This document shows, one piece after another, positions 31,694 to 57,581 of a stretch of 62,701 nt of DNA. The stretch comes from an uncultured Verrucomicrobia subdivision 3 bacterium (GTDB lineage: Bacteria; Verrucomicrobiota; Verrucomicrobiia; Limisphaerales; UBA11358). The notes below the pieces were generated by a model that saw only the letters and a list, made by a program, of their open reading frames with translations, ran no database searches and was not told the origin of the DNA. Position 1 is the first letter of the stretch. The number at the start of each line of letters is the position of its first letter. The stretch covers positions 1-62,701 of the forward strand of contig CAISVF010000039.1 in assembly GCA_903888765.1 (NCBI GenBank). Reading direction: 5' to 3'. A program made the position numbers and the translations under genes.

Positions 31694-34261
31694 TTAGGGG
31701 GTCTGTTGGACGCGGTAGAACTTGTACCCATTACTTCCCGACGAATCAAATAAACGGTTGGTCGTCCCGTCACCGACAATCGGATTAGCCAGATTCGTCC
31801 AGGTCATAGCGCGCGTCAAATTAGTGGCCATTTGAACGGTGTAATTACTGTTAAGAATCGTGGGCCAGACAATGGCCACGCCGTGCTCCACCAAAGCCGG
31901 AACGAGATTCGTCACCAGGTTCACAGACTTGATGGACGCCAGGTTTTGGGTGGTCAGAGTGCCGGGCGCCAGAGTCATGCTGCCGATGGCGACGTTGTTG
32001 CTATAAATGGTCGCAACCTGAGGGGTGTTCAGCGGGTTAAAAGCAACCAGGGTACGCTGCGCAGTGTTGGTGTTGTAATAAACTGCGCTGGTGGGCACGC
32101 TCAGGTGGAATTGCCATTGAATCGAGCCCAGATTCCGGTAGGCGTGAGCGAAGTAGTAAGTCGAACCCGCGTACATCGGATCGGTTGCGACTGCATCGTT
32201 GCTGGCATACAACTGGTCCATCTGCGCGGCTACATAGTCAGGATTGAACTGGAGCGCATACCACAGCGCATAATTGCCCCATTGCGAGCCCATCGAACTG
32301 ATGGAATTAGAACCCACCACAGCCAACTGTTCGGCGAGCATGTTGTTGAACTGATTCTGCGCAAAAACCGGATTTTGCGCGAGATAGCTCAGCCCCGGGG
32401 ATATGGGCAACCACTGAATTCCGTGAATATAAATCGGATTAAGGCCGAAGTAGGTTTGAAAATCCTGGCCATTATCCCAGAGGATGCCAACGCAGGAACG
32501 ATTGTAAACTGGCGGCCAGACATCGGCGTGCTCGTTAAACCAGTATTCCCGCACGGCCGCCGATTCCATTACATAACCCATCGCGCCGGCAGCCCGCATC
32601 TGGTCATCCCCCAGCGCGGCTCCCAGCAAAAAGAGGCCCACCCAGGAGTTCATGGCTTCGCTGCTCGATTCCTGATTGCCGCCCCGGTTGGAGTCGGGGT
32701 AGCCGCTCGCTTGGGAATGCCCTGCCCAAATGTCGAACGTCCGGAAAAATGCGAAGTTTGTGTCGCTGCGATCCCAGTTTGCGTAATCCTTCGCCACCAG
32801 TTTGGCCATTGCCCCATAATTGTTCAGGAAATTGGTGTCATACAAACCCAGCAGCGCGGCGGCATGGGTGATATAGCCGTAGTGGAAATGCTGGTCATTG
32901 AATTGTTGTGAGCCATAGCTGGCCTGGAAACCAACGAGCGCCTTCCAGGCCGGATAAGCGGCAAAATAGTAAGTTGATTCGCCGGGTGTGTAGGTGTACC
33001 AATTCTGGAGCCCCGCCTTGAGCGTGTCATGCAACGTGGTGAACTCAGGCCTACCCATGTCATGAGCCATCGCCATGTGCTGGGCGTAGCGTAGCAGGTC
33101 CTTGCCCCCCCAGTAGGTGTCGGGAGCAATGGTGGTATTGGCCGCCACGCTGGTGAGATACGCATTCATGCGCGCCAGGACATAATCATTCGACCGGCCA
33201 GTCGGTGCCGGCGGGGGCAAGGTGGGAGGAAAGCCGGTGAACGGGTAAACGAATTGAAAGTCCGCTCCGGTGGCGCATTTCATGGGACCGCGCGCAGTGG
33301 AATAATTCATTCCGTTGAACAACAGATTATTAGTCGTGCTGCGCCAATGATGCGCCAGCCAGCCCTGAATGACGCGCGGCTCGGAGCCTTTCAATATTTG
33401 GGTCGCCAGATGCCAACTCGTGGTCACCGCGCCCGCCGCGGGATCGTAGGTCCAGTTCATCTGGCTGTCTCGCGGAACGGCGTAGGCGTATTGCGCAAAA
33501 TAGGCAAGATTGGACTTGGCGGGCAGAGCACTCACGACGAGGAACGCATTTGTGTTGGCAAAGATTACATTTACCACCCCGTTGCTCAGGGTAAACTGGG
33601 TTCCATCCGGGGCAAACACGCCCCAAAAGCGACCGGAACCGTAGGCTACACCGAAATGGTTGCCCGTGAGCGGAAATGACGCGATGCTCCCGCTGTCGTC
33701 AAAGAATGTGGCCCCCCCGGAAGGAAACGCGATTTGCGGCTGCACGCCGGTGAATTCAACCCACACCGAAGGCAATCCGTGACCGATCGTCACATCCATG
33801 AACTGGTTGACCGTCTGCTGCATGCGCAATGAAACCGTCCAATCGCCCCAATGCAATGCACGCGCATCCGCCGGCGCAAACTGCGTGCCGTGAATTGTGA
33901 TGGGACTATCCAATGGCATTTGCGGAGTGGTTCCGGAGGGCACCCAACTATTTGGATTGTAGAGGTTGATGCCTTGGGCATCCGCAGAAATGGTCAACGG
34001 CTGGGCCCACATATTGCCGGCGTATTGGCTGTTGATCAGGTCGGTCCACCATTTATTACTCGGCATCGGCGCCCCATTGTTCGCAATCACGTAAGTGGGC
34101 GGCGTCGTCGGCAGGGATCCTGCGTTGGCCTGAGACGGGGGATACGACGCATACGAACCGGCGCCGACGGGGACAACCAATTGAGCGGAAGCCCATTTCA
34201 CCCCAAGCGCTACGGCCAGAATACAGACAAGAATTTTCATAATTTTATTTCTTTCGATCAT
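31694..34261 (-). CDS. GH81 endo-beta-1,3-glucanase with a C-terminal FYRV-type tail domain
   Basis: GH81 signatures FNDQHFHYGYITHAAA and FRTFDIWAGHSQASG...GGNQESSSEAMNSW. A signal peptide is present. The ATG overlaps the upstream stop (ATGA); an alternative ATG is at 34240. Confidence 0.85.
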   Translation of the reverse strand: MIERNKIMKILVCILAVALGVKWASAQLVVPVGAGSYASYPPSQANAGSLPTTPPTYVIANNGAPMPSNKWWTDLINSQYAGNMWAQPLTISADAQGINLYNPNSWVPSGTTPQMPLDSPITIHGTQFAPADARALHWGDWTVSLRMQQTVNQFMDVTIGHGLPSVWVEFTGVQPQIAFPSGGATFFDDSGSIASFPLTGNHFGVAYGSGRFWGVFAPDGTQFTLSNGVVNVIFANTNAFLVVSALPAKSNLAYFAQYAYAVPRDSQMNWTYDPAAGAVTTSWHLATQILKGSEPRVIQGWLAHHWRSTTNNLLFNGMNYSTARGPMKCATGADFQFVYPFTGFPPTLPPPAPTGRSNDYVLARMNAYLTSVAANTTIAPDTYWGGKDLLRYAQHMAMAHDMGRPEFTTLHDTLKAGLQNWYTYTPGESTYYFAAYPAWKALVGFQASYGSQQFNDQHFHYGYITHAAALLGLYDTNFLNNYGAMAKLVAKDYANWDRSDTNFAFFRTFDIWAGHSQASGYPDSNRGGNQESSSEAMNSWVGLFLLGAALGDDQMRAAGAMGYVMESAAVREYWFNEHADVWPPVYNRSCVGILWDNGQDFQTYFGLNPIYIHGIQWLPISPGLSYLAQNPVFAQNQFNNMLAEQLAVVGSNSISSMGSQWGNYALWYALQFNPDYVAAQMDQLYASNDAVATDPMYAGSTYYFAHAYRNLGSIQWQFHLSVPTSAVYYNTNTAQRTLVAFNPLNTPQVATIYSNNVAIGSMTLAPGTLTTQNLASIKSVNLVTNLVPALVEHGVAIVWPTILNSNYTVQMATNLTRAMTWTNLANPIVGDGTTNRLFDSSGSNGYKFYRVQQTP

Positions 34262-35908: not shown

Positions 35909-37384
35909 CTAAGCCGGGGATTTTTTCCGCCAGGCACCAAGAATCACCACCAGGAAGACTACTTCAATCGCCCCGGCAATTCCCAGCAGCATTTCATAGG
36001 ACCATTGAGACGGGGACTGCACCAGCACAATGTCCTTGGGTGAACGCAGGAGCAGGCGGAATGACTTCGCGCGCCAGTCCTTACCAGCCTGCCAGTTATT
36101 GCCGCGCTCGATCAGACAAATGCCCGTGACCATGACTTCGCTGCCGTTAAACAACCCGGGGAGTTGGTCGGCAATGGCACCCTGCGGCAGATAAGCTTGA
36201 AAAATAAAATCACCGGACTCAAGCAGGAGAAATTGATTAAGCCCGCGATCCACCCGCTCCAGCAATTTTGCCGAAACCTGCACTAGGCGGCAGTCATGCG
36301 AGCCCGACAACATATCGTTGAGATCCAGGCAGTCATGCGCGCCCGTCAATATCTTATTCAGATCCACGACGTCGGCCTTTGGCTCGGTGCCGGTGCCGGT
36401 TTTTCGATAGATCGCGTCTTCCAGAATCGGTGTGTATTCGCCCTTCGCGGGCGAGCCGAGGACTTCCACCTGATCGCCCAGTTGCACGGGTTCACGCAGC
36501 AAAGTCTGGCAATGCAGTCCATGGCTCCCATCCTGAATAAACAAGGCATTGCCCGGTTGAAAATAAACCACCGTGCCGGTCACCTTGACCCGGTGCGCCA
36601 GGCTTCCCTGCGGCGTGAATTGCAACAGGCCGTCAATCGGCTGCATCGGGGCATCATAGGGATTCGCCGGGCCCGCCTGTTCGATGACCAGTCCATCTGC
36701 GTTGGATACGAGCAGGCGGAAACCAAACAGCTGGCGCTGGTGGTTGAATAGCGTCGAGCAGACGCCGCGAACCCGCACCGTGGCGTCCAAAAGATCGTCG
36801 GGCTTGGCCACCGGCAGTTGCTTCGTGATGACATTGAACCGCTCCCCATCCACCACCACGTCAACAAAGTAATTGCCCGACGATTTCTCAAAACGCACTG
36901 CCCGGACATTCCCGTTGATTTCCACCATTTGACTGTCTTCCGCACCGCTCAAAAGCCGCTGGAGACTGGAGGGTTTGGCCTCAGGGAGATTGCCATCGCC
37001 CACGACTTTGATACTCGTGGGCATGACCACGGGGGCGAACTCACCTGGACCGGTGACGCCATCCACCTCGACCAACTGCCCCGCTTTCAACGCAAGCGTG
37101 TTGGTCACCTGCAAATAGATCCCGGCTGTGGCGTCCTGCAAGAAACGCGAAAAAAGCCCATCGTCATAAAACGTCACCACGCCGCGCAACTTGACCGGAT
37201 AATGCTTTTCTGCGTCAGCCGTCGATAGGCCGCGAACTTCGGCCACGGTGGTCAAAACCCGTTCCGGCGTCTGCGCGCTCGCCTGGCGCAGGCCAAAACC
37301 AAACAGCAGGGCCAAGCCCAAGGCAAGGGCGCTGGGAATTCCCCGGGTGGTTCCTGCCATCATCGTTGTGTTGGTCGTTTTCAT
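35909..37384 (-). CDS. Membrane-anchored, kinase-less paralog of the histidine-kinase sensor ectodomain
   Basis: Signal peptide plus a ~410-aa domain collinear with residues ~29-440 of the kinase at 58311..60398. Shared runs include LFSRFLQD.TAGIYLQ, TVRVRGVCSTLFNHQRQLF, LLQFTPQ, YTP.L.DAIYRK and NWRAKSF..LLRSP. One C-terminal TM helix follows (LLGIAGAIEVVFLVVILGAW), then only RKKSPA. Confidence 0.75.
   Translation of the reverse strand: MKTTNTTMMAGTTRGIPSALALGLALLFGFGLRQASAQTPERVLTTVAEVRGLSTADAEKHYPVKLRGVVTFYDDGLFSRFLQDATAGIYLQVTNTLALKAGQLVEVDGVTGPGEFAPVVMPTSIKVVGDGNLPEAKPSSLQRLLSGAEDSQMVEINGNVRAVRFEKSSGNYFVDVVVDGERFNVITKQLPVAKPDDLLDATVRVRGVCSTLFNHQRQLFGFRLLVSNADGLVIEQAGPANPYDAPMQPIDGLLQFTPQGSLAHRVKVTGTVVYFQPGNALFIQDGSHGLHCQTLLREPVQLGDQVEVLGSPAKGEYTPILEDAIYRKTGTGTEPKADVVDLNKILTGAHDCLDLNDMLSGSHDCRLVQVSAKLLERVDRGLNQFLLLESGDFIFQAYLPQGAIADQLPGLFNGSEVMVTGICLIERGNNWQAGKDWRAKSFRLLLRSPKDIVLVQSPSQWSYEMLLGIAGAIEVVFLVVILGAWRKKSPA
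36290..36367. repeat. Imperfect in-frame 39-bp tandem duplication inside the orphan sensor gene
   Basis: gcagtcatgcgagcccgacaacatatcgttgagatccag / gcagtcatgcgcgcccgtcaatatcttattcagatccac. This encodes ..LNKILTGAHDC/LDLNDMLSGSHDC.. The kinase paralog has a single copy (..ALKGKHDC..). Confidence 0.8.
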
Positions 37385-37452: not shown

Positions 37453-38529
37453 TTAATCCGGATAAAGCCGGTTGCTGGCTAGCTTCGCCTTCCGATCCAC
37501 CGTGAACAATCCCCAATGCTTCTCTGCGCCGAGCGGGTCGCCGGCATCGCCCTTCCAGTCTTCGTCAAACGCCTCAAAAAAGAAAGTTGTGATATGCATT
37601 TTGCCCGTCCAGGCAAAAAGATCGTGATAATACTTTTCCTGCTTTTCTTCGCTCGCCCGTGCGCCAAATTCCTTTGCCACGGTCGCCCAGCCCGCCTCGG
37701 TGATAACGATCCGGCTTTTCGGCAGGGCATTTCGCACCGCTTGGAGATTGGCGATGGTGTAGGTCATGGCCTCGTCAATGTCCTTCTTCTCCCATTCCGG
37801 ATACGTATGCACGGAAATAAAATTCAGTTCCTGCGCCAGCGCTGTGCCGTGATGCGCCCACCAGTCGTAATTGTCGCAAACGGTCACGGGCTGCTTCACG
37901 GCCTTTTTAACTTGTCTGACATAATCGATCACCGACTCCACCGGCACCATGTGATCGTTCCAACTCACCAACGCCTCATTGCCAATGGCGACGGCCGCCA
38001 CAATGTCGCGGTACTGCTGCGCGAGGCGAATGGTGTTCTGGATTTCCGTCGCGTTTAACTTCTGATTCGCGGCCAGCACCTCCGCTGGAATCGGCTGGAG
38101 CCAGGTGCAATTCGTGTTGCTCACTTCAGCAGAAAGCCACGCACCCAGCATCACTTTGAGTTTTAATTTATTTTCCCGGATCAGCCGCAGAATGACCTCC
38201 GAATTCGTTCGCGCATCGTAAAGCCGGATCATCTTGAAAGTTCCCGCGAGGGTCAGTATATGCAGGTCTTCCAGAATTTGCTGCTCACTTGGATTAGCCG
38301 CGCCGCCGCCGCGATCTGGATGCTGACCATGGCGAAAACCTGAGTAACAAATTCCCTGCGGCAGGCCGGCCAGCAAATCCGCTTTCTTTTGCTGAAGCGA
38401 TACCAGCTTAGCATCGCCCGCATCGGGGTAGCCGGCCTGGCTTATCGGTGCGCACGAAAACAGCAGCAGCCAAGTGGTAACGATACTGGCAAACTTCCCC
38501 AAGGTCTTGGCTATGAAATGCAATTTCAT
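37453..38529 (-). CDS. Secreted clan GH-A glycoside hydrolase, GH17-like (beta-1,3-glucanase/transglycosylase candidate)
   Basis: ATG at 38529 (MKLHFIAKTLGKFASIVTTWLLLFSCAPISQA). GICYSGFRHGQHPDRG....PSEQQILEDLHIL, an acid/base-like AIGNEALVSW and a nucleophile-like VITEAGWAT are arranged as in GH17. Confidence 0.55.
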   Translation of the reverse strand: MKLHFIAKTLGKFASIVTTWLLLFSCAPISQAGYPDAGDAKLVSLQQKKADLLAGLPQGICYSGFRHGQHPDRGGGAANPSEQQILEDLHILTLAGTFKMIRLYDARTNSEVILRLIRENKLKLKVMLGAWLSAEVSNTNCTWLQPIPAEVLAANQKLNATEIQNTIRLAQQYRDIVAAVAIGNEALVSWNDHMVPVESVIDYVRQVKKAVKQPVTVCDNYDWWAHHGTALAQELNFISVHTYPEWEKKDIDEAMTYTIANLQAVRNALPKSRIVITEAGWATVAKEFGARASEEKQEKYYHDLFAWTGKMHITTFFFEAFDEDWKGDAGDPLGAEKHWGLFTVDRKAKLASNRLYPD

Positions 38530-38539
38530 CAGTACGGTT

Positions 38540-45283: not shown

Positions 45284-45310
45284 TTTTCGTGGAAACCGCC
45301 GCGGCCATCA

Positions 45311-45925
45311 TTATTCAAACCGGATATCGTCGAGATAGAAAACCACCGGCGCGCTTTGCCCGGCCACCGACCAGCAGAATCCGGTTTTGATTCGTGTCAG
45401 GTCTTTGCCGGCTAGGTCAATGGAGTATTCCGTCCAGTCCTTCGTCAGCTTGACATCGGCTATTTCACCTTTCGCACTGTCGGAGAATTTTTTATCCGAA
45501 CCCAGAATGCCAAACTTGAAACTGACGACTTCATCGCCCTTCTCGCCGCGCGCCCAGAACTTTAGCTTTTGAGCCCCGGTAAGGTTCCAGCCGCCGGTCT
45601 GATCGCCCCAATCATTGGCCGGATCTTGCCAGACAATGCCCGACCAGTTGTCGGTGGCGGTATATTCAAGCTTCAGGCAGGTTTTGCCGCCGTGCGGATT
45701 GGTGGAGCAACCGTCATCCATCTTGGTGGCCTTGGCATTGCCCATCCAGCCGGACGGGATGTAATGATTATTCGCGCTGCCTCGTTCATCATAAACCATG
45801 AAAGGCAGCTTGACGGCCTTGGCCGCCGGCGCGTCTTCGGCCCGGAGTGATTGAAAACCGGTGCATACGCTGACCACCACGCAGGCTATGGCGAGACCCT
45901 GACTCGATTTTTGTTGCAGTTGCAT
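45311..45925 (-). CDS. Secreted stand-alone CBM-like protein (paralog of the C-terminal domain of the neighbouring hydrolase)
   Basis: LPFMVYDERGSANNHYIPSGWMGN...GIVWQDPANDWGD..GGWNLTGAQKLKFWARGE.GDEVVSFKFG.LG.DKKF.DSA......V.LTK.W.EY.I.L......RIKTGF.WS.A.....VVFYLDDIRFE matches residues ~430-602 of the 602-aa hydrolase. Confidence 0.7.
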   Translation of the reverse strand: MQLQQKSSQGLAIACVVVSVCTGFQSLRAEDAPAAKAVKLPFMVYDERGSANNHYIPSGWMGNAKATKMDDGCSTNPHGGKTCLKLEYTATDNWSGIVWQDPANDWGDQTGGWNLTGAQKLKFWARGEKGDEVVSFKFGILGSDKKFSDSAKGEIADVKLTKDWTEYSIDLAGKDLTRIKTGFCWSVAGQSAPVVFYLDDIRFE

Positions 45926-46130: not shown

Positions 46131-46976
46131 TTAGTGCGGGGTGTGTTGCGCCAGCCAGGCAAGATCGGCATTGTTAACACAGTTCACATAAGGAGGCCTT
46201 GTTTTGGTAACCGGCACGACTACCTGGCCCGTCTGCCATTTATGAACAGTCGAGTGGCCATCCGCGAAAGCCATTCCGCAAGAGCCGGCATGCTGGCTGC
46301 CGGGTAGTTCTACTAAAGTGCCGGTCCCGCTCGTGAAGGTGCTGCTGGCATACAACATTCCATCATCAATATAATCGGGAGCCTCATCCATGAACAGCCA
46401 GCTGTCCGATGGGCCGGGATTATTAAAGTCTCCTGATTTTTTTGCCCAAAACGGCGTGCCGCCCGTCGTTCCGGCGAGACCTTGAGCCCATTTAATGCCA
46501 TCCCCAATGGCTGCGTTCATGACAACACTGTGGGACCGCGAACTCCAGCCTTTGGCAGATTGGGGCGGGCTAACATAGACAGCGGCGGGGCAGGCAAACA
46601 CCTTGGCATTTCTTCCCATGTACCCGCCCAGCAGGGAGTAGGTATCATCCACGAGATATAACGTATTGGTGTTCTGCTGCCCAGCTGACCAGTCCATCCA
46701 GGGATTGCCGGTAATCCATGATGGCGTGCCATTGTAGGGACTGCCCGTATCATTGTTGATGGCGAGGCGTTCGGCATTGTCACCGGCATACATGATCCAA
46801 GCCAGGCCAAGTTGCTTATTGTTGCTCATGCAGGAGGCGGCAATCGCCTTTTGCTTGGCCTTGCTCAAGGCCGGCAGGAGCATCGCGGCCAGAATGGCGA
46901 TGATGGCGATGACCACCAGCAATTCTATCAGAGTGAACCCGGACTTGAATCCATGTCTATTTGCTTTCATATTCAA
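46131..46976 (-). CDS. Prepilin-type N-terminal cleavage/methylation domain protein with a DUF1559 (H-X9-DG) body
   Basis: [32 protein letters not shown] class-III signal, and a C-terminal ...[14 protein letters not shown] motif. Confidence 0.85.
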
Positions 46977-47061: not shown

Positions 47062-50000
47062 TCAATATTTCAACCGATAAAACACCGCCGGGTTGGCCGG
47101 ATTGATGGTCATGATTATTTGATTGGTAGTCGTTGATCCGCTTACGTCAGACCAGGTAGCCGAAAGGCCAGTGCTCAAGGAATTGGTTTGCGACTGCAAG
47201 GTCCAACCAGTGTGATCAGCCGGCCAATGGAGCGTGAGTTTGTTGCCCTGGACGCTCATGACCAGGTTCGTCCGCGAGGTGTTCACCAGAGTGCCCACCA
47301 CCAGGGTATTCGTGCTGGCGGCGTAGAAGCTATCGCCCGAGTAAATGGCCGTGATCGTGTAAGCAGCTGGCACGACGGTGGGGCTGCTGTTGGCAGCACC
47401 GGTCGCCACGGTGCCCACACTCTGCGCCACGGTGTTGGTTTTGAAAGCCACGGTGCCGGTGGCAGCGGTCGCTGGCATTCCGTTGGTGTTTACGGTCGCG
47501 GTGAAGACGGCGCCAGACTGAACCGTGGAGGCAATCACGCTGGGTGAGCCGGAAGCGGAGGTGGTGGACAGCGAGACGTCGTCAACCAACACGCCGCCAG
47601 AATCACCGAGAACCGCGCCGGTTACGGATATAATCTGAACCAGAACAGTCGCGGCACCCGCCGGAGCCACCGCCGGGGCAATGCTGATTTGGGTCCAGCT
47701 GCTCAAGCTCGAGGACAAGGTCGTCCAACCGCTGGGATTGAGCGTGCCGAGAATGTTGCCGCTGCCGTCCATCCAGACCGGATTATATTGCTGAACCGCG
47801 CTGAATCCGGTCTTGGGAAGTGACTTGGCCCAGAAGGAGCAGCTGTAGGTATTCCCCGGGATGATGGCCGCGCCACCCTTATTATAGACGTTCTCTTCCA
47901 AAATGGACGTCTGGGCTCCTGCGGTGTCGTTGGTGACATAAAGCGATTCACAAGAGGTGCCCGTGTGAGCATCCGTACTGATCCAGGTCGGCAACGTGGT
48001 CCCCAGCAGCGACCAACTGAAACTGGGATCGCTCTCAAAGTCGCCCTGCTGAACTTCTTCCGTGGTGACCGGCGTGTCTTGCAGGACTTGATAGTAAGCC
48101 GCCGGCGCCGGGTCATAAACTGAGGTCACCGCCGAACCGGTCAACTGGCTGCCCAGATTGTTCCAGGTGCTGTTGTCGGTCGAGCTCTGTACCTGATAAT
48201 AATTGCCGCTAACCGCGCTCCAACTGATTTCCTTCCCCGAACCGACCGAGAGGGCCAGCGTCGTTGGAGCCGCACCGACGGGTGCTCCCACCACACTGCC
48301 GTAGGTGTTGCCGGTGCGAATCTCGTCGAATACATCAGCATTGCCGCCACCTTGAACGTTGAATCCAATCCCGGTGATCGTGCCTACATCGTAAGCGCTC
48401 CACACCAGATTAGCGGCTCCTGCCGGCGCGTTTGTGCCCGCTACGGGGTCCAGCCATAGGCTAACCGTATCGTTCGCCCCAGAGGTGTTGAAATCAATTT
48501 TCAAGACGATCAGATGGGCTTGGTTATAGGTTAAACCGCCATTCACTTGCTGTCCGGAGAAGGTGGTAATCCCCGTGGCTCCGGCCCCGGCGGTGGCAAC
48601 TGAACCGAGCCCCAAACTACCGGCAGTGCCACTGTAGGCAGCCGTGATTCCTACGATGAGACTGGAGGATCCGCTGCCAAAAAGCACGAGTCCATTCAGA
48701 TTTGCTCCGTTATTGCCAAGCTGGTTGAAAAGGAAACTGACATACTTCGTCCCGGTGGAAAGGGGGCTGGTCAAGGAGACCTGATCGCGGCTGCCCGTTG
48801 TGGAAATGGCGTTGTGTGAAGCAGATAGTCCGGGGTAGGTCAAACCGCTGACAATGGTTCCATTTCCGACGGTCCAGTTGCCTGTCAGTCCGTTGCCCGT
48901 GTTAGCCGAGCCGGTGGCAAAACTTCCGAGGCCATAATTAAACGACTCGTAAGCGTTCACGAAAGCGACGGGTGAGGCGCTCACTTCTGAAGAATTGGCA
49001 CTCTGGCCGGCGGAATTGGTGGCGGACACCTCATAAAAATAAGTCGTGCCGTTAGCCACGGTTAAATCCGTGAAACTGGTCGTGCCTGCAACGGCGATGG
49101 TAACTTCCGCGCCGCTGGTGGTCGAGCGTTTCACATTGTAGCCGGTAGCCGCAATACTGGCGCTCCAACTCAGCGAAACCTGACCATCACTCACGCTTGC
49201 TGCCAAGCCGCTGGGGACAGCCGGCGCGACCAGGGTTGGCGCAGCCGACACTTCCGCGCTGTTGGCACTCTCGCCGCCAGCATTCACCGCCGAAACAACA
49301 TAGAAGTAAGTTGTTCCACCGGCGACAGCATCAGTAAAATTCGTTCCCGTCACCGCGCCAGCGCTGGAAACCGTCACATAGCCCGAACCGCTGCTGGTGG
49401 AGCGCTTCACATTATAACTGACCGGGCTTCCGGCAGCGGCGTTCCAAGTCAAGTTGACGGAATTGCCGCCAGACGTGGCACCTAATCCAGTCGGAGCCGA
49501 CGGTGCCGCGACGATATAGTCAACTGCTTCAGACCAGGTGGTCCCAATGCGCAGCTCATCAAACACAAAATTACCACCAGCACCGGCGGGGTTCACAATC
49601 GAGCAGGCGCTAATGGTAAATTGGGGCATCGTAAACGTGCCGTCAGGCGTTGATTCCGTGCTGGTGTTGGCCGTAGGATTCACCCAGATGCTGCCCGTCC
49701 AACCCGCACCAGTGCCGACGAGTTTCACCACGATGAAATAGGTGTTGCCGTAAGTGATATTGGCCGTGGTGGATTCCCATTTATTGGCGGCACTATCATT
49801 GTAGCCACTCTGTTGGTTTACCCCCAATTTCCCGGTTGTGCCGGTGACCGGGGTCGTGACACCCACGAACATGCCGTTGCCGCCCGTGTTCATTTCCAAG
49901 CCAACCTTGTTGCCGCCGGGGTTGCCGCTCATGTTGAAAAGATAGCTAACATATACCGTGCCGCTAGAAACCGGACTCGCCAAATTCTCGCCGGAATAAG

Positions 50001-50913: not shown

Positions 50914-50935
50914 GCATTATTTAGCTGTTAGCAAC

Positions 50936-53900
50936 TTACTGAATCAAGTGCAAGCGATAGAATGCCGACTTGGGAGTCGCCCCCAAGTCGCTGAAGTTAT
51001 CTACGCTAGTGACATTCCCACCCACCGGCGCGGTGATTGCTGGGAAATTGGAGATGCCAGCGGTGAAGGTGACATTGGTTGCGCGCTGCAAGGAATATTG
51101 TTTTCCGGCAATGCCAGACATCACCACCTGGGCTTGACCCGAGGTCAAACTCACCAACCCCGATCCGAAGCCAAAGTTAGCACTCGGCACCAATACCCCC
51201 ACGTTGTCGAAGCCGACCGTGGAATTGGCACCCCATTCCGGAACTACCACGACGCCGGTACAATTCGCCGGTATGGTGACGGTGAAGCTATAGGTTGTCC
51301 AGGAACCTCCGTTCAGAATCCTGGAGGGAAACATATCTCCGGTGCTTCCCGAGGGGGAAAAATCAACCTTGAGGCCGCCAATGGAATTGCCGGACATGAG
51401 CATCATATCTTCGACAAATGTATAGGTCTGGCCGGCTACCAAGCCCAATGATGCCAGCGGGATCGGGGAATTGTTATTAGCCACCCAAATACCCCAACCG
51501 CCACCGACATTAGCAATGACCCCGTAGCCTGTGGGATTGCCACCGGTAGCCAGATAACTGAAGGTATTTCCGCCTCCCTGCACTTCCACCCAAGAACCCA
51601 AACCACCTGCTGGAGACTCAAAATCACCATCTGGAACCAATATTTTGGTGAAATTACCCACGGTGACATTCACTACGGCTGATGTAACGGCGTTGCCGTT
51701 GCTGTCTTTGGCCACGACTTTCAGGCCATGAGAGCCGGCGGATGCGCCAGACACCGAGTAACTGTAAGGACTGCTGGTTGCATTTCCAAGCAATACCGCC
51801 CCGTCGTAAAAGCTCACATTGGTTACCGAACCGGGGTTGACGACAGCGGTGGCGCTAATAGTAAAGTCAGGCAAAATGGCGGCGGTGTTGGTGGGACTAG
51901 CTATTGAAGCATTCAGCGGTGTGGTGACATTGCCACCCACCACATCCCCATAGCTACCACCGACGCGAACTTCATCAATGATGGCACCGTAGGCCCCTTG
52001 AATATTGATCCCGAATTTGGTGATAGAACCCACATCGAATGAGCTGTCCACAACATTGGCATCAACGCCCGGAGCACTTACGCCTGCTGGCGGATCAATC
52101 CAGAGGCTCACCGTATCATTGGCCCCAGAAGTATTAAACTCAAGCTTCAGAACCACCAGATGAACCGCAGTATTGCTAATGGGAATTGTGCTCCCCAAGG
52201 GGGTGGCACCACTCAGTGCGGTGCTACTGACCGTGCCCAAGCCAAAACTGGTTTGGCTGGCGCTGTAGCCTCCTTCAAAACCCACGAATAGGCTGCTGGA
52301 GTTATCTCCCTGAAGAAACACACCGGCAGCAGTGGCGCCAGGATTTCCGGCACCCTGCATTAAGAAGCTGACATACTTTGTGCCATCATTTAGCGGACTG
52401 CCAAATGCCAGGGAATTTTGACTGCCTGTAGCATGATGCTGATAGGCATGGCCAGTCGTAGGAAGGCCTGGGTACGTCAACCCGGCAACAATCCCAGCAC
52501 TCGTCGGAAGCGTCCAGTTGCCAGTGAATCCCGTGCCGGTATTGGCGGTTCCGTCAACCAAACTGCCCGTCCCATAATTAAAGGGTTCATAGGCATTGAA
52601 CGACGGTATGGGGGCATTGGTCACGAAAACTGTGACCATCGGGGACGTCGCCGAATTGCCATGGCTATCGGTCGCCACCCCCGTCAGCGCATGACTGCCA
52701 GCGGCCAGACCGATGGCGCTATAACTGAATGGTTCACTGGCTGCATTGCCAAGCCACGTGGCACCATCATAGAAGTCAACCCCGGTCACAGTGGCATGTC
52801 CGACCGAAGCATTCGCCCGGATCGTAAGATTGGAATAAACCACCTGATTATTGGTTGGGCTTGAAATGGACACAGTTAACGGCGTGACAGTGTAATAAAA
52901 ATAAACGTTGTCTATGTAGAAATCACGAACCGGGTTTTCCCCGGAATTGTTTATAATCCAGCCTAATTGATTAATCTGGGTTAAATCCATTCCGGGATTA
53001 TTAGCCTTAAACTGGCTCAAGGGTATATCCAAATGCACCCAGCTATTGGAGGTAATGACGCCCCCGGCTGTCGTGTAAGTAACATCTGCGGAACCACCAA
53101 CCGCCGAAATTAAACGGACCGCAAAACTATCACCATTGGGAGTATAGACATCGACATGAAGTGTGTTATAGCCGCTCACATCATTCGCACTGTGCATGCC
53201 CACGCCAACAAACTGCAAGCCCTGATAGCCAAGCACGACATTGGTCGTGCCCGGGATTGTGTAATTGCCATGCCCTGTCCATTGTCCGGCCCACCATTGC
53301 TGGTAGAAGTCATCTACCAAAATATTGGTGTAAACTCCTCGGCTATTCCACAGTGAAAGCACCTGCCCCTGTGGGAGTGTGGGTGCAGCAGTCACAATGG
53401 CCGGGGTGGGCAATACCGTGATATGCACCACCGCTGAAGTGGTACTCAGACCATTGTTTGCATGGGCTGCAGCCGTCACGGCATGGCCACCAGCCAGGGC
53501 GGTCCAGGCGGAGCTAAACGGGCTACCAGCTGAGCTGCCAACCAGCGTGCCATCAATATAATAACCCACGTTCGTTACCGCTCCAGCCGTCATCACCGTA
53601 AGCGGCACACTGGCCCCCGTAAGTACCGCACTGCCGTCGCTTGGGCTGGTCAGAGCAACCGTCGGCGGCAGATTTGCCGCCGTAACGTGAACCACTGCGG
53701 AAGTGGCCGCAATGCCACCGCTGTCCCGCGCGACCGCCACTAGGGTATGAGCGCCGTTTGCCGCACTGGGCACATTGAAAATGAACGGTGCATTAGTCAC
53801 ATTCCCCAGCAGGGTGCTGTCCAAGTAAAAGGCAATATTGGTTACCGTGCCAGGAACCACAGAGCCCGTGGCGCTGACCACGAATCCGCCGCCGTTCACC

Positions 53901-55309
53901 GCCGCATTATTGGTCGGACTCGTGATGGAGACAGACACCGGCAAGGGCGGAACCATGACGCCAATATTGTCATAACCGACTGTCGAATTGGCACCCCATT
54001 CCGGTACGACCTTAAAGCCAGTGGTGCCTGCCGGAATAGTCACCGAGAAGGAATAGGTGGCCCAGTCGCCGCCATTCAAAATACTGGATGGAAACATATC
54101 TCCGGTGGAACCTGAAGGCGTAAAATCAATCTTGAGTCCGCCAACGGTGCTGCCGGAGATGAGTTTCATATCTTCGACAAATGTGTAAGTCTGGCCCGCC
54201 GTAAGGTTGAATGCAGTAAGAGAAATGACGGCATTGTTATTTCCAACCCAAAGTCCATAGGCTCCGCCGACATTAGCCATAACCCCATAACCACCCGGAT
54301 TTCCGCCCGTCACTGGATAGCTATACGTGTTCCCGCCACCCTGGGCAACCGTCCAGCTGCCACTGGTACCCGCAGGGCTATCAAATCCCCCATCCGGAAA
54401 CAGAGCCAGAACCGGGGTGGCAATAGTAACGTTCACCACGGCGGAGGTGACACTATTTCCACTGCCATCCTGCGCCACCGCCGTCAGCGCATGGGGCCCG
54501 TTCGCCAAACCGGTGGCGGAGAAGTTGTACGGAGCGCTGTAAACGCTCCCCAGCAGCGAACCATTGTCATAAAAATCAACGCCGGCAATCGTGCCCGGAT
54601 AAATTGAAGCCGGCGCAATAATCGTAAAGTTTCCAGAGGCCAAAGTAACGCCACTGACCGGACTCGTGATCGCCACATTTAGAGGTACCGGTCGACTAAC
54701 AAAATAGAAATTATCTATATAAAAATCTTTGCCGCCATCCAGCAAACCGATTTGGTGAATTTGTGTTAAATCTAAAGCCGGATTGGCTGCGGTAAACTTG
54801 CTCAAGGGAATATCCAAATGCACCCAAGTGTTGGCGACAATGGCCCCCGCATCGGTGTAAACATTAGCCTCACCACCCGCATAAGAAACCAGCTTGATAC
54901 CGAAACTGCTGCCATTGGGAGCAAAAACGTCTAAATGCAAATAATTGCAGGAATGAAAATCATAGCCCGCGTTTAAATTGACCCCTCCGTAATTGACCCC
55001 TGTGTAGCCCAACACCACGCTCGATGTTGAAGGCACCGCGTAAGGCCCGGCCGTCGCCCACCCTCCCCAATATTCATAGTAATTGATGTTAGAAAGATTC
55101 ACGTAGGTCCCACTGCTATTATACAAGCTTTGGACAGTCGGTGATAAATCGATCGGCGCGGATGGAACCGTGGTTGGCTGGGCCTGCCCACGCCCTGCTC
55201 CACCAAGAATGACGATTATCGTCAAGATAAGAAAAAACCATGTGTTAAGTGATTTGACCAGCACAGACTGATTCGAGCCGGACATTTTTTGTTTATTGAA
55301 TGTACTCAT
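50936..55309 (-). CDS. Giant secreted modular protein (1457 aa): CBM-like X x2, Ig-like x5, CBM4/9-like Y x2, unassigned module x1 and an FYRL-type tail
   Basis: N-terminal anchor/signal WFFLILTIIVILGGAG. The X modules are at nt 54695..55177 and 52892..53389 (..LH.DV..PNG.SF...L.S..GG.A.V.......V....WVHLDIPLS.F.A.NP..DLTQI.Q.G.....DFYIDN.YF). The Y modules are at 53948..54409 and 51185..51646. The unassigned module is at 51932..52597. The protein ends ...KSAFYRLHLIQ. Confidence 0.8.
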   Translation of the reverse strand: MSTFNKQKMSGSNQSVLVKSLNTWFFLILTIIVILGGAGRGQAQPTTVPSAPIDLSPTVQSLYNSSGTYVNLSNINYYEYWGGWATAGPYAVPSTSSVVLGYTGVNYGGVNLNAGYDFHSCNYLHLDVFAPNGSSFGIKLVSYAGGEANVYTDAGAIVANTWVHLDIPLSKFTAANPALDLTQIHQIGLLDGGKDFYIDNFYFVSRPVPLNVAITSPVSGVTLASGNFTIIAPASIYPGTIAGVDFYDNGSLLGSVYSAPYNFSATGLANGPHALTAVAQDGSGNSVTSAVVNVTIATPVLALFPDGGFDSPAGTSGSWTVAQGGGNTYSYPVTGGNPGGYGVMANVGGAYGLWVGNNNAVISLTAFNLTAGQTYTFVEDMKLISGSTVGGLKIDFTPSGSTGDMFPSSILNGGDWATYSFSVTIPAGTTGFKVVPEWGANSTVGYDNIGVMVPPLPVSVSITSPTNNAAVNGGGFVVSATGSVVPGTVTNIAFYLDSTLLGNVTNAPFIFNVPSAANGAHTLVAVARDSGGIAATSAVVHVTAANLPPTVALTSPSDGSAVLTGASVPLTVMTAGAVTNVGYYIDGTLVGSSAGSPFSSAWTALAGGHAVTAAAHANNGLSTTSAVVHITVLPTPAIVTAAPTLPQGQVLSLWNSRGVYTNILVDDFYQQWWAGQWTGHGNYTIPGTTNVVLGYQGLQFVGVGMHSANDVSGYNTLHVDVYTPNGDSFAVRLISAVGGSADVTYTTAGGVITSNSWVHLDIPLSQFKANNPGMDLTQINQLGWIINNSGENPVRDFYIDNVYFYYTVTPLTVSISSPTNNQVVYSNLTIRANASVGHATVTGVDFYDGATWLGNAASEPFSYSAIGLAAGSHALTGVATDSHGNSATSPMVTVFVTNAPIPSFNAYEPFNYGTGSLVDGTANTGTGFTGNWTLPTSAGIVAGLTYPGLPTTGHAYQHHATGSQNSLAFGSPLNDGTKYVSFLMQGAGNPGATAAGVFLQGDNSSSLFVGFEGGYSASQTSFGLGTVSSTALSGATPLGSTIPISNTAVHLVVLKLEFNTSGANDTVSLWIDPPAGVSAPGVDANVVDSSFDVGSITKFGINIQGAYGAIIDEVRVGGSYGDVVGGNVTTPLNASIASPTNTAAILPDFTISATAVVNPGSVTNVSFYDGAVLLGNATSSPYSYSVSGASAGSHGLKVVAKDSNGNAVTSAVVNVTVGNFTKILVPDGDFESPAGGLGSWVEVQGGGNTFSYLATGGNPTGYGVIANVGGGWGIWVANNNSPIPLASLGLVAGQTYTFVEDMMLMSGNSIGGLKVDFSPSGSTGDMFPSRILNGGSWTTYSFTVTIPANCTGVVVVPEWGANSTVGFDNVGVLVPSANFGFGSGLVSLTSGQAQVVMSGIAGKQYSLQRATNVTFTAGISNFPAITAPVGGNVTSVDNFSDLGATPKSAFYRLHLIQ

Positions 55310-55381: not shown

Positions 55382-55409
55382 GCCTAGCTAGCCGAAAGGA
55401 TAGTTTTTT
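55382..55409. promoter_or_regulatory. Conserved double-palindrome motif, copy 2 (gcctagctagccgaaaggatagtttttt), 73 nt upstream of the 1457-aa gene ATG
   Basis: See copies at 50387 and 57658. Confidence 0.6.
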
Positions 55410-55517
55410 AGGGCCGTCCTTCCTGCGTTTTTTGAATCGAATGCGGTAAAATCTGCCATGTGGCGCTAATCGGCACGGCAAAACATTCCTGAAGCCGTTT
55501 CCACGGTAAGCATGATA

Positions 55518-57581
55518 TTATTGCAACTGAATCCGGAAAAACTCCTGATGCGCCGTCACAGAATTGGTGCGTGGTGGGGTTGCTCCGCTGACCTTGGTCC
55601 ATGGCCCGGCAATGTTGCTGGCGGATTGAAGCGTGCCCGTCGGCCAGTTCAAAACCACGCTTCCCCCCACGTATTGAGCCGCCATCTTGGCCAGTGGATT
55701 GACCTTCACAAAGGTTGTCGCCGACGGCGACGCGCAGCCGCCGATGACCGCCTGCACACTGAACAACCCGGACAGGTTTGTGGTCGCATTCGTAATGGCC
55801 GGATTTTGATTGGTGGAGGTAAATCCGCTTGGGCCGGTCCAACTGTAGGTAGCTCCTGACACCGTCGAAGCCGCCAGATTTAGGTTCATGCCCGCCCAAA
55901 GCGGCCCGTTGTTGGCGGCCGTTGGGGCCGCCGGCTGGGGAAGAATGATTTCAATGCCACTCGATTTGGGCTGGTCAGCTGTACCGGCTGTGTAGGCAAC
56001 AATAATCTGTCCGCTGCCATTGGGAGTGCCGGTGAACTCGCGGATGATCGCCTTGTTCTGGCCGCCGGCCGCCGCAAAAATGTCGTAGTTCGTCAATACC
56101 TGCGTGCCATTGAGGGCCACGTTGAATTTTCGCGCATTGGCTGCGTTCCAATAATATTCGACAAAGTGTAAACGAACTTTGTACGTGGCTCCCGGCGTGA
56201 GGCCGCCAAAAGTGTAGGTAAAAGGACCGTAGCGCTCGGTTTGATAAACCGTCTGCGGAGCCGGCGCGTTCACACCACTGATGTCAATGGCGGAGGTCGT
56301 CGGTGCCGCCTGAGTACCGCCGGTAAAGTAGGCATCCGCCATGAAATGGCCGGCTGCACTCCCGCCGGAATTGACGGCCAGGGCGAAGGAGCCCAGCGCG
56401 GCGGGCTGCTCGCTGGAATTGGCACTCTCGCCAGTCGCGTTGGTGGCGGATATCACGTAGTAGTACGTGGCACAATTGGCGACGTTCGTATCCGTGTAAT
56501 TATTGACCAGCGAATTCGCAACCGTGGTGTAAGGTCCGCCGCTGCTGAGCGAGCGCTTGATGTTATAACCGCTGGCACCGGAGTTCGGGGCCGACCAGCT
56601 TAAAAACACCCTGGCGTTTCCGGGGCTCACGCCCAAGCCAGTGGGTGGGCCCGGCGGGGCAGACACGTACTTATAAACGCGGACATAATCCACCAACATT
56701 TGTTGGGGCCATACGCTTGTTCCATCAGGGTTGCCAGGCCAGTTGCCGCCGACCGCGACATTGAGCAGCAGGAATTGCGGCTGCATAAAAACCCAGGTCG
56801 AACTGCCGGGCAGGCTGGCTGGCGTGGCCGCAAAAAACAAATTGGTATCAACGAACCATTGGATTTGATTGGTCGTCCATTCCACGGCAAAAATGTGGAA
56901 GCCATCGGCGAGCGCCGCCCCGCCCGGCAGCGTATAGGTTGCGCCAACCCCGCTACCGCCATTGTAATCCCCACCCGACTGCGGGCCATGAATCGTGCCG
57001 TGCGTCGTGCCTTGATCGCTGGCCTTGCCGATGTTTTCCATGATGTCAATCTCGCCGCAGGCGGGCCAGCCGACCGAATCAATGTTGGTGCCCAGCATCC
57101 AGAACGCGGGCCAGAGGCCCTGTCCTCGGGGAATCTTGATGCGCGCCTCCATACGACCATAGGTCCAGGACCATCTGCCTTTGGTCAACATCCGAGCCGA
57201 GGTATAACTGCTGCCGCCGTAGCTTTCCTGATTGGCTTCAATGACTAGTTGCCCGCCCACCACGCGGGCGTTGTTGGTGCGCGCGGTGTAATATTCCAGC
57301 TCGTTGTTTCCCCAGCCGCCGTTGCCGGTGTTGTAAACCCAGTTGGCGGGATTGGGAGAACTCCCGTCCGGCTGGTTAAATTCATCTGACCAAAGCAGTT
57401 GCCAGTCGGCATGAACAGCCAATGGCACCGCCAGCAGGGCCCAAAGGCCGGCCAGAAAATGGATTCTTTTCATCCAACGATATTTCATATTTGTGGCCGC
57501 TCGAATCATCGTCCAGACCGGGTGGCTGGGCCTTGCAGCCAGCGAACTGCCCCCAATGACCTTTGCAAACCATGCGGACAT
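55518..57581 (-). CDS. GH16 beta-1,3-glucanase (laminarinase), FN3, malectin-like domain, Ig-like domain and an FFRI-type tail
   Basis: GH16 catalytic motif ACGEIDIMENIG together with WPAFWMLG. FN3 is marked by PTGLGVSPGNARVFLSWS...YNIKRS. The malectin-like part shows YQTERYG.FTY...YKVRLHFVEYYW....RKFNV.LNG. The protein ends ...VVLNWPTGTLQSASNIAGPWTKV...EFFRIQLQ. The signal peptide follows internal ATGs at 57488/57473, so the start is uncertain. Confidence 0.9.
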   Translation of the reverse strand: MSAWFAKVIGGSSLAARPSHPVWTMIRAATNMKYRWMKRIHFLAGLWALLAVPLAVHADWQLLWSDEFNQPDGSSPNPANWVYNTGNGGWGNNELEYYTARTNNARVVGGQLVIEANQESYGGSSYTSARMLTKGRWSWTYGRMEARIKIPRGQGLWPAFWMLGTNIDSVGWPACGEIDIMENIGKASDQGTTHGTIHGPQSGGDYNGGSGVGATYTLPGGAALADGFHIFAVEWTTNQIQWFVDTNLFFAATPASLPGSSTWVFMQPQFLLLNVAVGGNWPGNPDGTSVWPQQMLVDYVRVYKYVSAPPGPPTGLGVSPGNARVFLSWSAPNSGASGYNIKRSLSSGGPYTTVANSLVNNYTDTNVANCATYYYVISATNATGESANSSEQPAALGSFALAVNSGGSAAGHFMADAYFTGGTQAAPTTSAIDISGVNAPAPQTVYQTERYGPFTYTFGGLTPGATYKVRLHFVEYYWNAANARKFNVALNGTQVLTNYDIFAAAGGQNKAIIREFTGTPNGSGQIIVAYTAGTADQPKSSGIEIILPQPAAPTAANNGPLWAGMNLNLAASTVSGATYSWTGPSGFTSTNQNPAITNATTNLSGLFSVQAVIGGCASPSATTFVKVNPLAKMAAQYVGGSVVLNWPTGTLQSASNIAGPWTKVSGATPPRTNSVTAHQEFFRIQLQ

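Follow-up and report, generated by a model that had tools for sequence, protein, structure and literature searches.

We found that the C-terminal tail shared by a group of verrucomicrobial proteins belongs to a very large domain family that is uncatalogued in Pfam and NCBIfam. As modelled, the tail (57–75 aa) is a self-folding β-sandwich that descends from FN3 and stops after strand F. The reading that we prefer, with a probability of about 0.45, is that it may function as a folded C-terminal module for targeting or docking in the envelope. The DNA analysed, hereafter the window, is 62,701 nt of freshwater verrucomicrobial sequence, read on the forward strand of contig CAISVF010000039.1 (GCA_903888765.1).

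The tails of the window were searched with a leave-out profile made from 46 sequences from elsewhere, none of which reaches 50% identity with a window tail. An earlier note on this DNA had suggested a profile scan built on the window copies; the outside-only profile regained all seven copies at the places where that note had put them. The note had counted seven secreted proteins; the shared domain is real, but it is distributed over six proteins in seven copies, five of the proteins being encoded in a β-1,3-glucan locus and one elsewhere. The tail of the GH81 endo-β-1,3-glucanase (31697..31903, minus strand; gene 31694–34261) was detected with E = 8.5e-17, and that of a 516-aa fn3-containing protein (34261..34470, minus strand; gene 34258–35808), whose close relatives P0001–P0008 have the same end, with E = 1e-12. 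The 1084-aa protein (gene 47062–50316) terminates in a tail of the WPADHTGW type, called J-type here (47065..47271, minus strand; E = 1.2e-10), and holds an internal copy at residues 685–747 (48076..48264, minus strand; E = 4.5e-8). The weakest matches were the divergent tail, lacking the first Trp, of the 1457-aa Big_7/CBM_4_9 protein (50939..51163, minus strand; gene 50936–55309; E = 8.8e-4), the relatives of which (P0014, P0015 and P0025) have the same type of end, and the short variant on the GH16-fn3-malectin protein (55521..55691, minus strand; gene 55518–57581; E = 8.7e-3), which also terminates carriers in L006 and L177. The copy outside the locus belongs to a DUF7948-SBBP β-propeller protein encoded between bamA and skp (19722..19940, plus strand; gene 17490–19943; E = 2.5e-6). 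When a profile of the seven window copies was run against 862 six-frame segments of the window, only the copies themselves and weak fn3 matches in the same proteins fell below E = 1. Two to five residues separate the tail from the stop codon in every terminal copy, as had been claimed. The claim that the bodies are unrelated needs qualification: an N-terminal region with the motif SLxAxEPxNYT is common to the 516-aa and 1084-aa proteins, and canonical fn3 domains occur in the 516-aa, 1084-aa and GH16 proteins.

Searches of the isolated tails against Pfam and NCBIfam gave zero matches at E ≤ 10, and scans of the whole carrier proteins with the same libraries assigned the tail to no family. At 50% identity, the family comprises at least 14,073 representative clusters with E ≤ 1e-3, and 2,036 with E ≤ 1e-10. 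Its signature can be written as ...W...[YW]x[LV]Q..TN...W......F[YF]R[LMV]x(1-3), with Pro as the commonest residue at the end. The J-type pattern WPxDH[TLI]GWxL had at least 593 matches in species-representative genomes, the best 80 of which are mostly labelled Verrucomicrobiota. All sampled members with a named source come from Verrucomicrobiota, chiefly from subdivision 3 (Limisphaerales, Pedosphaera), a statement that covers the named members only, taxonomy from cluster names being sparse. When homologues were first sought with the tail alignment, all that came back were short fragments from contig ends, a set with usable sequences but biased architectures. Our literature search found no description of a verrucomicrobial C-terminal sorting domain.

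The AF2 models of two subtypes, the GH81 tail and the terminal tail of the 1084-aa protein, were both all-β, with pLDDT values of 89.4 and 89.3, respectively. In the model of the 1084-aa tail, strands A, B, C, E and F are present, and the models finish with the F-aligned strand, two to five residues before the stop. Since the tail stops after strand F, the F–G loop and strand G are missing; its fold is thus of a truncated FN3 type and not a novel one. A comparison of the tail profile with a bacterial FN3 profile by hhalign gave a probability of 95.6% (E = 1.1e-8, 65 aligned columns), a match favoured by the fact that the FN3 profile was built partly from domains cross-matched by the tail profile; the alignment covers only columns 5–71 of the 94 FN3 columns. 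The Trp of strand B, the aromatic-x-aliphatic motif of strand C and the aromatic F strand of FN3 (PF00041) align with the tail, and true fn3 domains are weakly cross-matched by the tail profile. However, FN3 is about 90 aa long and has a strand G, its Pfam model did not match the seven tails even at E ≤ 10, and the tail, unlike FN3, is nearly always the last domain in the chain. The fn3 matches in the window carriers sit on other, internal domains. Foldseek searches of the two models against the PDB retrieved generic Ig/FN3 sandwiches with a best E of only 0.1, and a profile search of the PDB gave marginal matches to CBM32 and neogenin FN3.

Of 103 carrier ORFs in 1.16 Mb of related genomes, 101 stop no more than three residues past the domain. 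The same was seen for 71 of 73 representatives with one copy and for 56 of 75 with several; in a separate metagenome sample, seeded with the pilin motif, the tail was terminal in all seven tail ORFs. Most apparent exceptions proved to be cross-matches to canonical FN3 domains or to carry a further, weaker copy as the last part of the chain. The C-terminal bias claimed in the earlier note is thus borne out on material beyond the window, and it is extreme: the domain is neither placed mainly at internal positions nor a feature of cytoplasmic proteins. A single terminal copy is present in 95 of the 103 carriers from related genomes; tandem arrays of 2–10 copies with Pro-rich linkers, and internal copies, were also observed. 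Of 223 copies, 151 finish in Pro and 32 in an aromatic residue (28 Tyr and 4 Phe). The last Pro may be a mere strand breaker; a special recognition of it was rejected, Pro-rich linkers following internal copies too.

The earlier note had described the carriers as secreted; their export is supported by a signal-peptide-like N-terminus in 78 of 84 complete carriers (median length 1,365 aa), as judged by a crude test; both the signal-peptide and the gene calls in related loci come from crude home-made heuristics. Their bodies are varied and include PATR, LamG, Ig, GH16, GH28 and peptidase M6 domains, with PATR repeats on 19 of 36 carriers. Those of the commonest subtype bear PATR, LamG, Ig and peptidase domains and no glycoside hydrolase domain. 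Among the carriers is P0153, a Ser/Thr kinase that has a TM helix and, on its extracytoplasmic part, two copies of the tail. Since this kinase is anchored in the inner membrane, the tail cannot always be a sign of outer-membrane export.

The β-1,3-glucan locus contains genes for GH81, GH16 and GH17 enzymes, an MFS transporter and a GH149 phosphorylase, and has at its head a LuxR-type response regulator (57682–58314) and a histidine kinase (58311–60398), both on the minus strand. Homologues of these regulators recur near J-type tail genes, response regulators at 23 and kinases at 18 of 78 loci. Within the locus, tails occur only on the endo-glucanases GH81 and GH16 and on large non-catalytic proteins; GH17, the MFS transporter and the cytoplasmic GH149 phosphorylase have none. 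Signal-peptide proteins of the locus that lack the tail are GH17, a 602-aa GH2-like protein and a 204-aa protein. One metatranscriptome run yielded contigs that match a stretch of the 1084-aa gene, tail included, with full identity. Among GH81 homologues with at least 55% identity, the tail is kept in all but one, which looks truncated; distant homologues show at the same position no extension, a T9SS CTD (PF18962, recorded on the Ohtaekwangia homologues P0297 and P0301), dockerin-like repeats or a discoidin domain (CBM). The homologues with a T9SS CTD or dockerin-like repeats belong to other phyla. GH81-type tails have conserved Trp residues and the conserved loops GDGTTN and FDP.

Directly downstream of the 1084-aa tail gene, at a distance of 85 bp, lies a prepilin-type H-X9-DG (DUF1559-like) gene encoding 281 aa (46131..46976, minus strand), a candidate partner of the tail. 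Its product scored 32.4 bits with TIGR02532 (cut-off 16.3), matched PF07963 (N_methyl) and PF07596 (SBP_bac_10), and has an N-terminal helix similar to those of solved pilins and GspG; the H-X9-DG motif was found, so that it combines a prepilin motif with a C-terminal H-X9-DG. The same order, tail gene followed by prepilin gene, recurs elsewhere. Prepilin neighbours exceed chance in both directions of the test: a prepilin gene directly follows 27 of 100 tail genes, mostly with gaps of 4–83 bp (expected 5.5%, P ~4e-12), and a tail gene lies directly upstream of 27 of 37 prepilin genes (expected 15.7%, P ~1e-14). In the sample seeded with the pilin motif, a prepilin motif was present 67–275 nt past the stop in all six evaluable tail ORFs (P ~4e-5). 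The H-X9-DG motif occurs in 18 of 28 prepilin neighbours of tail genes. The pairing has its limits: an adjacent prepilin gene accompanies no more than about a quarter of the tail genes, and an upstream tail gene only about 8–15% of the prepilin genes, and no pilin gene was found near three non-J-type representatives on short contigs. A literature search on the function of DUF1559 returned nothing relevant.

In the reading that we prefer, the carrier would be exported by Sec, and the folded tail would then be bound by a component of the envelope, a binding that may direct the carrier across the outer membrane or hold it at the cell surface. In the glucan locus, the tail would mark the proteins that meet the polymer outside the cell, namely GH81, GH16 and the three large non-catalytic proteins. 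As precedents, FN3 domains take part in recognition by the pseudopilus-based type II secretion system, as in Pel3/PelI of Pectobacterium/Dickeya (PMC7949064), and the secreted form of a T2SS substrate lacks its C-terminal FnIII domain (PMC9190976). More speculatively, the partner could be the type-IV-pilin-like H-X9-DG/DUF1559 family, a proposal that rests on the large excess of such genes immediately downstream of tail genes; tandem arrays would in that case represent multivalent or stalk-like versions of the module. The suggestion in the earlier note that the tail is a sorting or anchoring tag is therefore retained in part: the terminal bias and the exported, varied carriers speak for it, while the truncated FN3-type fold, the tandem arrays and the membrane-anchored kinase complicate it. 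In particular, tandem arrays are unlike any established sorting signal and are typical of structural Ig/FN3 modules.

It is possible, if rather unlikely, that the tail serves large extracytoplasmic proteins only as a generic, compact FN3-derived structural element, a spacer, stalk or terminal cap, and does not itself target or bind anything; its C-terminal bias would then arise from the way in which such multidomain proteins are built and duplicated. The FN3 homology, the arrays of up to 10 copies joined by Pro-rich linkers, the internal copy in the 1084-aa protein and the tail on kinase P0153 would all suit such an element, as would its rate of evolution: between GH81 orthologues, the tail is 58% identical as compared with 75% for the catalytic body, changing faster than the latter and at about the rate of the linker. 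However, nothing in the role of a spacer would require it to stand last in the chain in more than 95% of carriers, or to be represented in 95 of 103 by one copy at the terminus. The WPADHTGW subtype, moreover, is maintained at 55–75% identity across otherwise unrelated bodies, and the excess of prepilin neighbours would be left unexplained.

We consider it unlikely, but worth stating, that Verrucomicrobiota, and perhaps other PVC phyla, have an export or display system of their own that depends on pseudopilins, with the tail as the half borne by the cargo. The tail, lacking strand G, would dock onto the H-X9-DG/DUF1559 protein encoded just downstream, possibly by edge-strand pairing, and the pilin-like protein would either push its cargo through a secretin of the T2SS type or display it at the surface on a short, pilus-like fibre.

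Two further explanations fit the data less well. By analogy with the T9SS CTD of Bacteroidota, the tail could be a cleavable secretion signal, recognised in the periplasm by a dedicated outer-membrane translocon and removed after transport. The arrangement of signal peptide, varied body and β-sandwich of about 70 aa at the C-terminal extreme has the grammar of T9SS CTD proteins, the Ohtaekwangia GH81 homologues bear PF18962 at the position of the tail, and CbsA of Xanthomonas oryzae, a T2SS substrate, lacks its C-terminal FnIII domain in the secreted form (PMC9190976). Such a signal is nevertheless very doubtful, as T9SS CTD models have no sequence match in the tail, the domain occurs in tandem and internally, a kinase anchored in the inner membrane carries it, and the genes that recur beside tail genes encode regulators and prepilin-like proteins rather than a translocon. 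Equally improbable is a small CBM-like module for binding the substrate polymer or a cell-surface glycan: the PDB sequence that matches best belongs to a CBM32 discoidin module from a Paenibacillus glucanase/chitosanase (E = 0.004), a structure also in the Foldseek list (TM 0.57), tails occur on glycoside hydrolases and beside CBM-like domains, the Trp residues and the two loops of the GH81 type are conserved, and CBMs are often in tandem, but the match is marginal and restricted to a part of the larger jelly-roll, the commonest subtype sits on bodies without a glycoside hydrolase, CBMs also occur away from the end of the chain, and the conserved aromatics correspond in the alignment to core positions of FN3.

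In lakes, soils and oceans, much of the breakdown of polysaccharides is due to Verrucomicrobiota, which are not known to have the T9SS or the SusC/D-type logic of Bacteroidota. The tail, which numbers 14,000 clusters or more, keeps strictly to the end of the chain and is borne by exported proteins, offers a practical handle for modelling, genome scans, deletion and reporter fusions. Its pairing with prepilin genes joins two very abundant, uncharacterised features of these genomes, and an export or display system based on pseudopilins, if true, would give a role to their hugely expanded prepilin-like families. Should the tail be only a structural remnant of FN3, the gain would be smaller, namely a new domain model with which thousands of "hypothetical" C-termini could be better annotated.

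Comparison with known systems places the tail beside several C-terminal modules. PEP-CTERM/exosortase signals likewise occupy the C-terminus of many exported proteins of one genome, and PATR-repeat proteins, typical carriers of the tail, are typical PEP-CTERM carriers too. The tail differs in having no PEP motif, TM helix or basic tail, as the earlier note had already recognised and the window C-termini confirm, and the chain finishes in a β-strand. Neither in the window nor in 148 representatives is the domain followed by a hydrophobic helix (ends such as ...FYRVQQTP, ...FYRLKY and ...FFRLIKF), and membership was rejected. A β-signal of outer-membrane proteins in the last strand was rejected as well, the end being usually Pro and the hydrophobic register inconsistent; no autotransporter or OMP barrel family was found on the 36 carriers examined. 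CBM32/discoidin domains are eight-strand jelly-rolls of about 130–150 aa, whereas the tail is half that size, and membership was rejected because the match is partial, covering only residues 50–117 of PDB 2rv9/4zxe, and the size is wrong; PF00754 gave no match.

The T9SS CTD (PF18962/TIGR04183) resembles the tail in being a β-sandwich of about 70 aa at the C-terminal extreme of signal-peptide proteins with unrelated bodies, and it occupies the position of the tail on GH81 homologues. The tail, by contrast, has no sequence similarity to it, forms tandem and internal copies, and belongs to Verrucomicrobiota, in which no T9SS is known. Membership was rejected, as PF18962, TIGR04183 and the type B model gave no match at E ≤ 10. 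The 62.7-kb window contains none of the T9SS machinery genes (PorK/L/M/N, Sov, PorU/V). Dockerin, SLH, GW and WxL modules are, like the tail, appended to the C-termini of enzymes and binding proteins independently of the body and in variable copy number, and dockerin-like repeats stand in for the tail on planctomycete-type GH81 homologues; their folds are different, and any cohesin-like partner of the tail is putative. T2SS substrates with FN3 domains share with the tail carriers an FN3-type domain on Sec-exported, polysaccharide-degrading enzymes (PMC7949064), whereas their FN3 domains are full-length, N-terminal in Pel3/PelI, and not a family-wide tag.

The tail, a small C-terminal domain, ends five proteins of the gene array and, outside the array, the DUF7948-SBBP protein (17490-19943, + strand), and the 1084-aa protein contains one extra, internal copy. 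The shared motif described in the earlier note stands, while its count of seven proteins is corrected to six proteins with seven copies. A profile of the seven copies, searched against the six-frame translation of the window, found nothing further except weak matches on canonical fn3 domains within the tail-bearing proteins. A leave-out profile was then made with 46 sequences from elsewhere, none of which reaches 50% identity to a tail of the window; it recovered 7/7 copies with E values from 8.5e-17 to 8.7e-3, the 1457-aa and GH16 tails giving the weakest scores. The shared tail is real, far beyond chance.

The array is a single long run of co-oriented genes on the minus strand (31.7-60.4 kb) of this 62.7-kb piece of a genome from a freshwater (lake) metagenome. 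It begins with a histidine kinase (58311-60398) and a LuxR-type regulator, followed by three proteins that end in the tail, namely a GH16-fn3-malectin protein (687 aa), a Big_7/CBM_4_9 protein (1457 aa) and the fn3 protein of 1084 aa (47062-50316). After these come a prepilin-type protein (281 aa, 46131-46976), a 204-aa protein and a GH2-like protein of 602 aa (together 43475-45925), a 1160-aa protein (39986-43468), an MFS_2 transporter, GH17 (37453-38670), a 491-aa protein (35909-37384) and, again with terminal tails, an fn3 protein of 516 aa (34258-35808) and GH81 (855 aa). The 1160-aa protein has no Pfam match and is a close homologue of a solved bacterial beta-1,3-oligosaccharide phosphorylase (GH149, PDB 6hq6, E=4e-301), which identifies the array as a beta-1,3-glucan (laminarin-type) utilisation locus and fixes its substrate. 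The tail is present on both endo-acting glucanases and on the three large non-catalytic proteins; GH17, the 602-aa and 204-aa proteins, the transporter and the cytoplasmic phosphorylase are without it. This distribution, we infer, would fit a label for proteins working on the polymer outside the cell.

Several further features of the window were observed. The longest GH17 ORF shares 131 bases with the MFS gene; begun at an internal start, the protein would read MKLHF...LLLFSCAPISQA, an N-terminus that looks like a lipoprotein signal, and, if so, GH17 would be a tail-less lipoprotein. The 602-aa and 204-aa proteins, the latter with no match in Pfam or PDB, share another C-terminal domain, about 90 aa long and distinct from the tail (...KTGFxWSxAxQxxPVxFYLDDIRFE), probably an uncatalogued CBM, and some distant GH81 homologues end in a similar way (...LDDVRFVK). 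Directly after the signal peptide, a common N-terminal region (ASL[NI]A[YH]EP[FY]NYT...) is found in the 516-aa and 1084-aa proteins; it also begins several tail carriers in related genomes (loci L003, L004, L011 and L015). The 491-aa protein resembles the histidine kinase in its N-terminal region (VAxVRGLxxxxxxxxxPVxLxGVVTxYDxxLFSR), has a hydrophobic helix and then basic residues at its C-terminus, and could be a sensor-like paralogue lacking the kinase domain. The DUF7948-SBBP gene sits in a run of dnaB, bamA, this gene and skp/ompH (13544-20603, + strand), in which bamA encodes five POTRA domains plus Omp85 and is overlapped at its end by 23 bases; a beta-propeller protein at the bamA/skp spot is reminiscent of BamB. 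In a permafrost metatranscriptome run, two short contigs align to the 3' portion of the 1084-aa gene (47075-47634), one over the tail-coding region (159 nt, 0 mismatches) and the other over 199 nt with 2 mismatches; the remaining matching contigs of that run cover only the conserved prepilin motif of paralogues.

Neither Pfam-A nor NCBIfam contains a model that matched the tails, even at E<=10. AlphaFold2, run with small alignments on two tail subtypes, predicted a confident all-beta structure for the GH81 type (pLDDT 89.4) and likewise an all-beta structure for the WPADHTGW type found at the end of the 1084-aa protein (pLDDT 89.3; strands 4-8, 11-15, 24-31, 51-55 and 62-68). Foldseek against the PDB returned no more than weak matches to generic Ig/FN3 sandwiches (E>=0.1, TM about 0.5-0.6), and a PDB sequence-profile search gave marginal matches to a CBM32 module (E=0.004) and neogenin FN3 (E=0.013). 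A relationship to FN3 was established by profile-profile comparison with bacterial FN3 (probability 95.6%, E=1.1e-8, with an FN3 profile partly picked from domains cross-hit by the tail profile). The tail covers FN3 columns 5-71 of 94, corresponding to strands A to F, with no counterpart of the F-G loop or of strand G; by this alignment, the F[YF]R[LV] motif corresponds to the FN3 F strand. The C-terminus lies two to five residues past this motif. On these alignments we conclude that the tail is a truncated six-strand FN3 derivative, which makes it a novel subfamily within an existing fold and not a fold of its own.

Searched exhaustively with HMMER, 1.84 billion representative proteins yielded a family of 14,073 clusters at E<=1e-3, narrowing to 2,036 at E<=1e-10. 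The best 148 representatives, among which multi-copy proteins are favoured because scores add up, were re-scanned locally: 71 of 73 single-copy proteins end within 3 residues past the tail, and 56 of 75 multi-copy proteins terminate with a copy. The apparent exceptions were mostly true FN3 repeats that had been cross-hit, others having an extra, weaker copy at the end; in none of them did a TM helix or a PEP-CTERM signal follow the tail. As a less biased sample, species-representative genomes were scanned for the WPADHTGW subtype, which gave at least 593 matches. The best 80 are nearly all labelled Verrucomicrobiota (subdivision 3, Limisphaerales, Pedosphaera), the few MAGs with other labels being taken to be mislabelled; as far as sampled, the source is Verrucomicrobiota. 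The 78 loci fetched (1.16 Mb) contain 104 tail ORFs, 95 with one copy and 8 with two, and 101 of 103 ORFs end within 3 residues past the tail. This end-of-chain rule bears out the positional bias suspected earlier. Among 230 terminal copies, F[YF]R[LMVI] occurs in 223, is followed by two to four residues in 200, and Pro is the last residue in 151. Since Pro-rich linkers also follow internal copies, the final Pro appears to be a strand terminator, not a recognition feature.

The carriers are exported proteins. A signal-peptide-like N-terminus was scored in 78 of 84 complete carrier ORFs (median length 1,365 aa) by a simple, self-made hydrophobicity rule, and in several of the other six the signal peptide is plain by eye. 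Pfam domains on 36 carriers include PATR repeats (19), Laminin_G_3 (10) and Ig_3 (10), as well as Big_7, cadherin-like, GH28, GH16, BNR_4 and peptidase M6. Genuine tandem arrays also occur, in which 2-10 copies are joined by Pro-rich linkers (e.g. homologues P0047, P0053, P0059 and P0060). One carrier (P0153, locus L083) is a 1409-aa Ser/Thr kinase whose TM helix spans residues 343-362; beyond it, on the extracytoplasmic side, lie WD40 repeats, one tail copy, a CBM-like domain and a second tail copy at the C-terminus. The tail can therefore occur on an inner-membrane-anchored protein. The tail is extracytoplasmic in all cases seen, yet is not strictly a secretion mark.

Tail genes also have prepilin-type neighbours. 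In the 78 tail-seeded loci, a crude, self-made gene call gave 668 genes, including 105 tail and 37 prepilin-type genes. A prepilin-type gene lies directly downstream on the same strand of 27 of the 100 tail genes having a downstream neighbour (5.5% expected, P about 4e-12), mostly at gaps of 4-83 bp, and a tail gene lies directly upstream of 27 of the 37 prepilin genes (15.7% expected, P about 1e-14). Because these loci had been picked through tails, we ran the reverse test on metagenome contigs scanned for prepilin-motif DNA (120 loci, 691 kb, 127 motifs). Only seven tail ORFs, of several subtypes, were found there; all seven tails are terminal, and the prepilin motif lies 67-275 nt past the stop in 6/6 evaluable cases (P about 4e-5). 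Of 82 prepilin genes that have an upstream ORF on the same strand, about 12 were judged by eye to come after a C-terminus of tail type. The prepilin neighbours bear the prepilin cleavage/methylation motif, and the DUF1559-type H-X9-DG motif is present in 18 of 28; in the window, the 281-aa prepilin-type gene lies 85 bp downstream of the 1084-aa gene. Although significant, the association is partial, seen for roughly one tail gene in four. Other recurrent neighbours, in the window too, are response regulators and beta-propeller-type kinases. Our literature search returned no paper on the tail domain or explaining the DUF1559-type neighbours, which is weak evidence of absence.

The ends of GH81 homologues establish modular exchange. 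All homologues with at least 55% identity retain the tail, ending in ...KFYRVxQxP. The mean identity among orthologues is 58% for the tail as compared with 75% for the catalytic body, and several loop motifs of the tail are conserved; the tail is under selection, looser than that on the enzyme. A purely structural FN3 remnant, which would be in keeping with the truncated fold, is unlikely in our judgement. At the tail position, distant homologues have no extension, dockerin-like Asp-rich repeats, discoidin or another CBM-like end, and those of Ohtaekwangia (Bacteroidota) have Big_7 and the T9SS sorting domain PF18962; these varied ends mark a position where different phyla place localisation or binding modules. 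A cleaved T9SS-like signal for a hypothetical translocon would suit the Ohtaekwangia ends and seems improbable alongside the tail of the membrane-anchored kinase. That the tail is a small glycan-binding module, as the marginal CBM32 match might suggest, is equally doubtful beside the end-of-chain rule. Dockerin-like ends (...DADGDVDLxD...) were seen on P0249, P0255, P0263, P0270 and P0284, one of them labelled Phycisphaerales. In another genome (L204, 10001-13409), a GH81-plus-tail gene stands alone, followed after 38 bp by a gene for a 269-aa protein that combines a signal peptide with a CBM-like domain and a tail of the type seen in the 516-aa protein. The pair resembles, with the order reversed, the adjoining 516-aa and GH81 genes in the window.

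We tentatively prefer to see the tail as a localisation or docking module, with a probability of roughly 0.45. Such a module would explain why the tail is terminal and why one subtype is conserved on unrelated bodies, and also its exchange for T9SS or dockerin modules and its link to pilin genes. Tandem arrays may then be multivalent or stalk versions, like other non-covalent surface-anchoring repeats. In Pel3/PelI, a loop of the Fn3 domain forms part of the secretion signal (PMC7949064), and the T2SS substrate CbsA is a secreted enzyme without its C-terminal FnIII domain (PMC9190976); FN3-type domains can thus matter in pseudopilus-based (type II) secretion. The tail does not belong to the T9SS CTD, PEP-CTERM, CBM32 or autotransporter families, defining features of which were looked for and not found. 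As compared with FN3 itself, it is a distant, truncated relative that fails the Pfam fn3 model, and, judged on the whole analysis, it appears to behave most like an appended C-terminal targeting or anchoring module.
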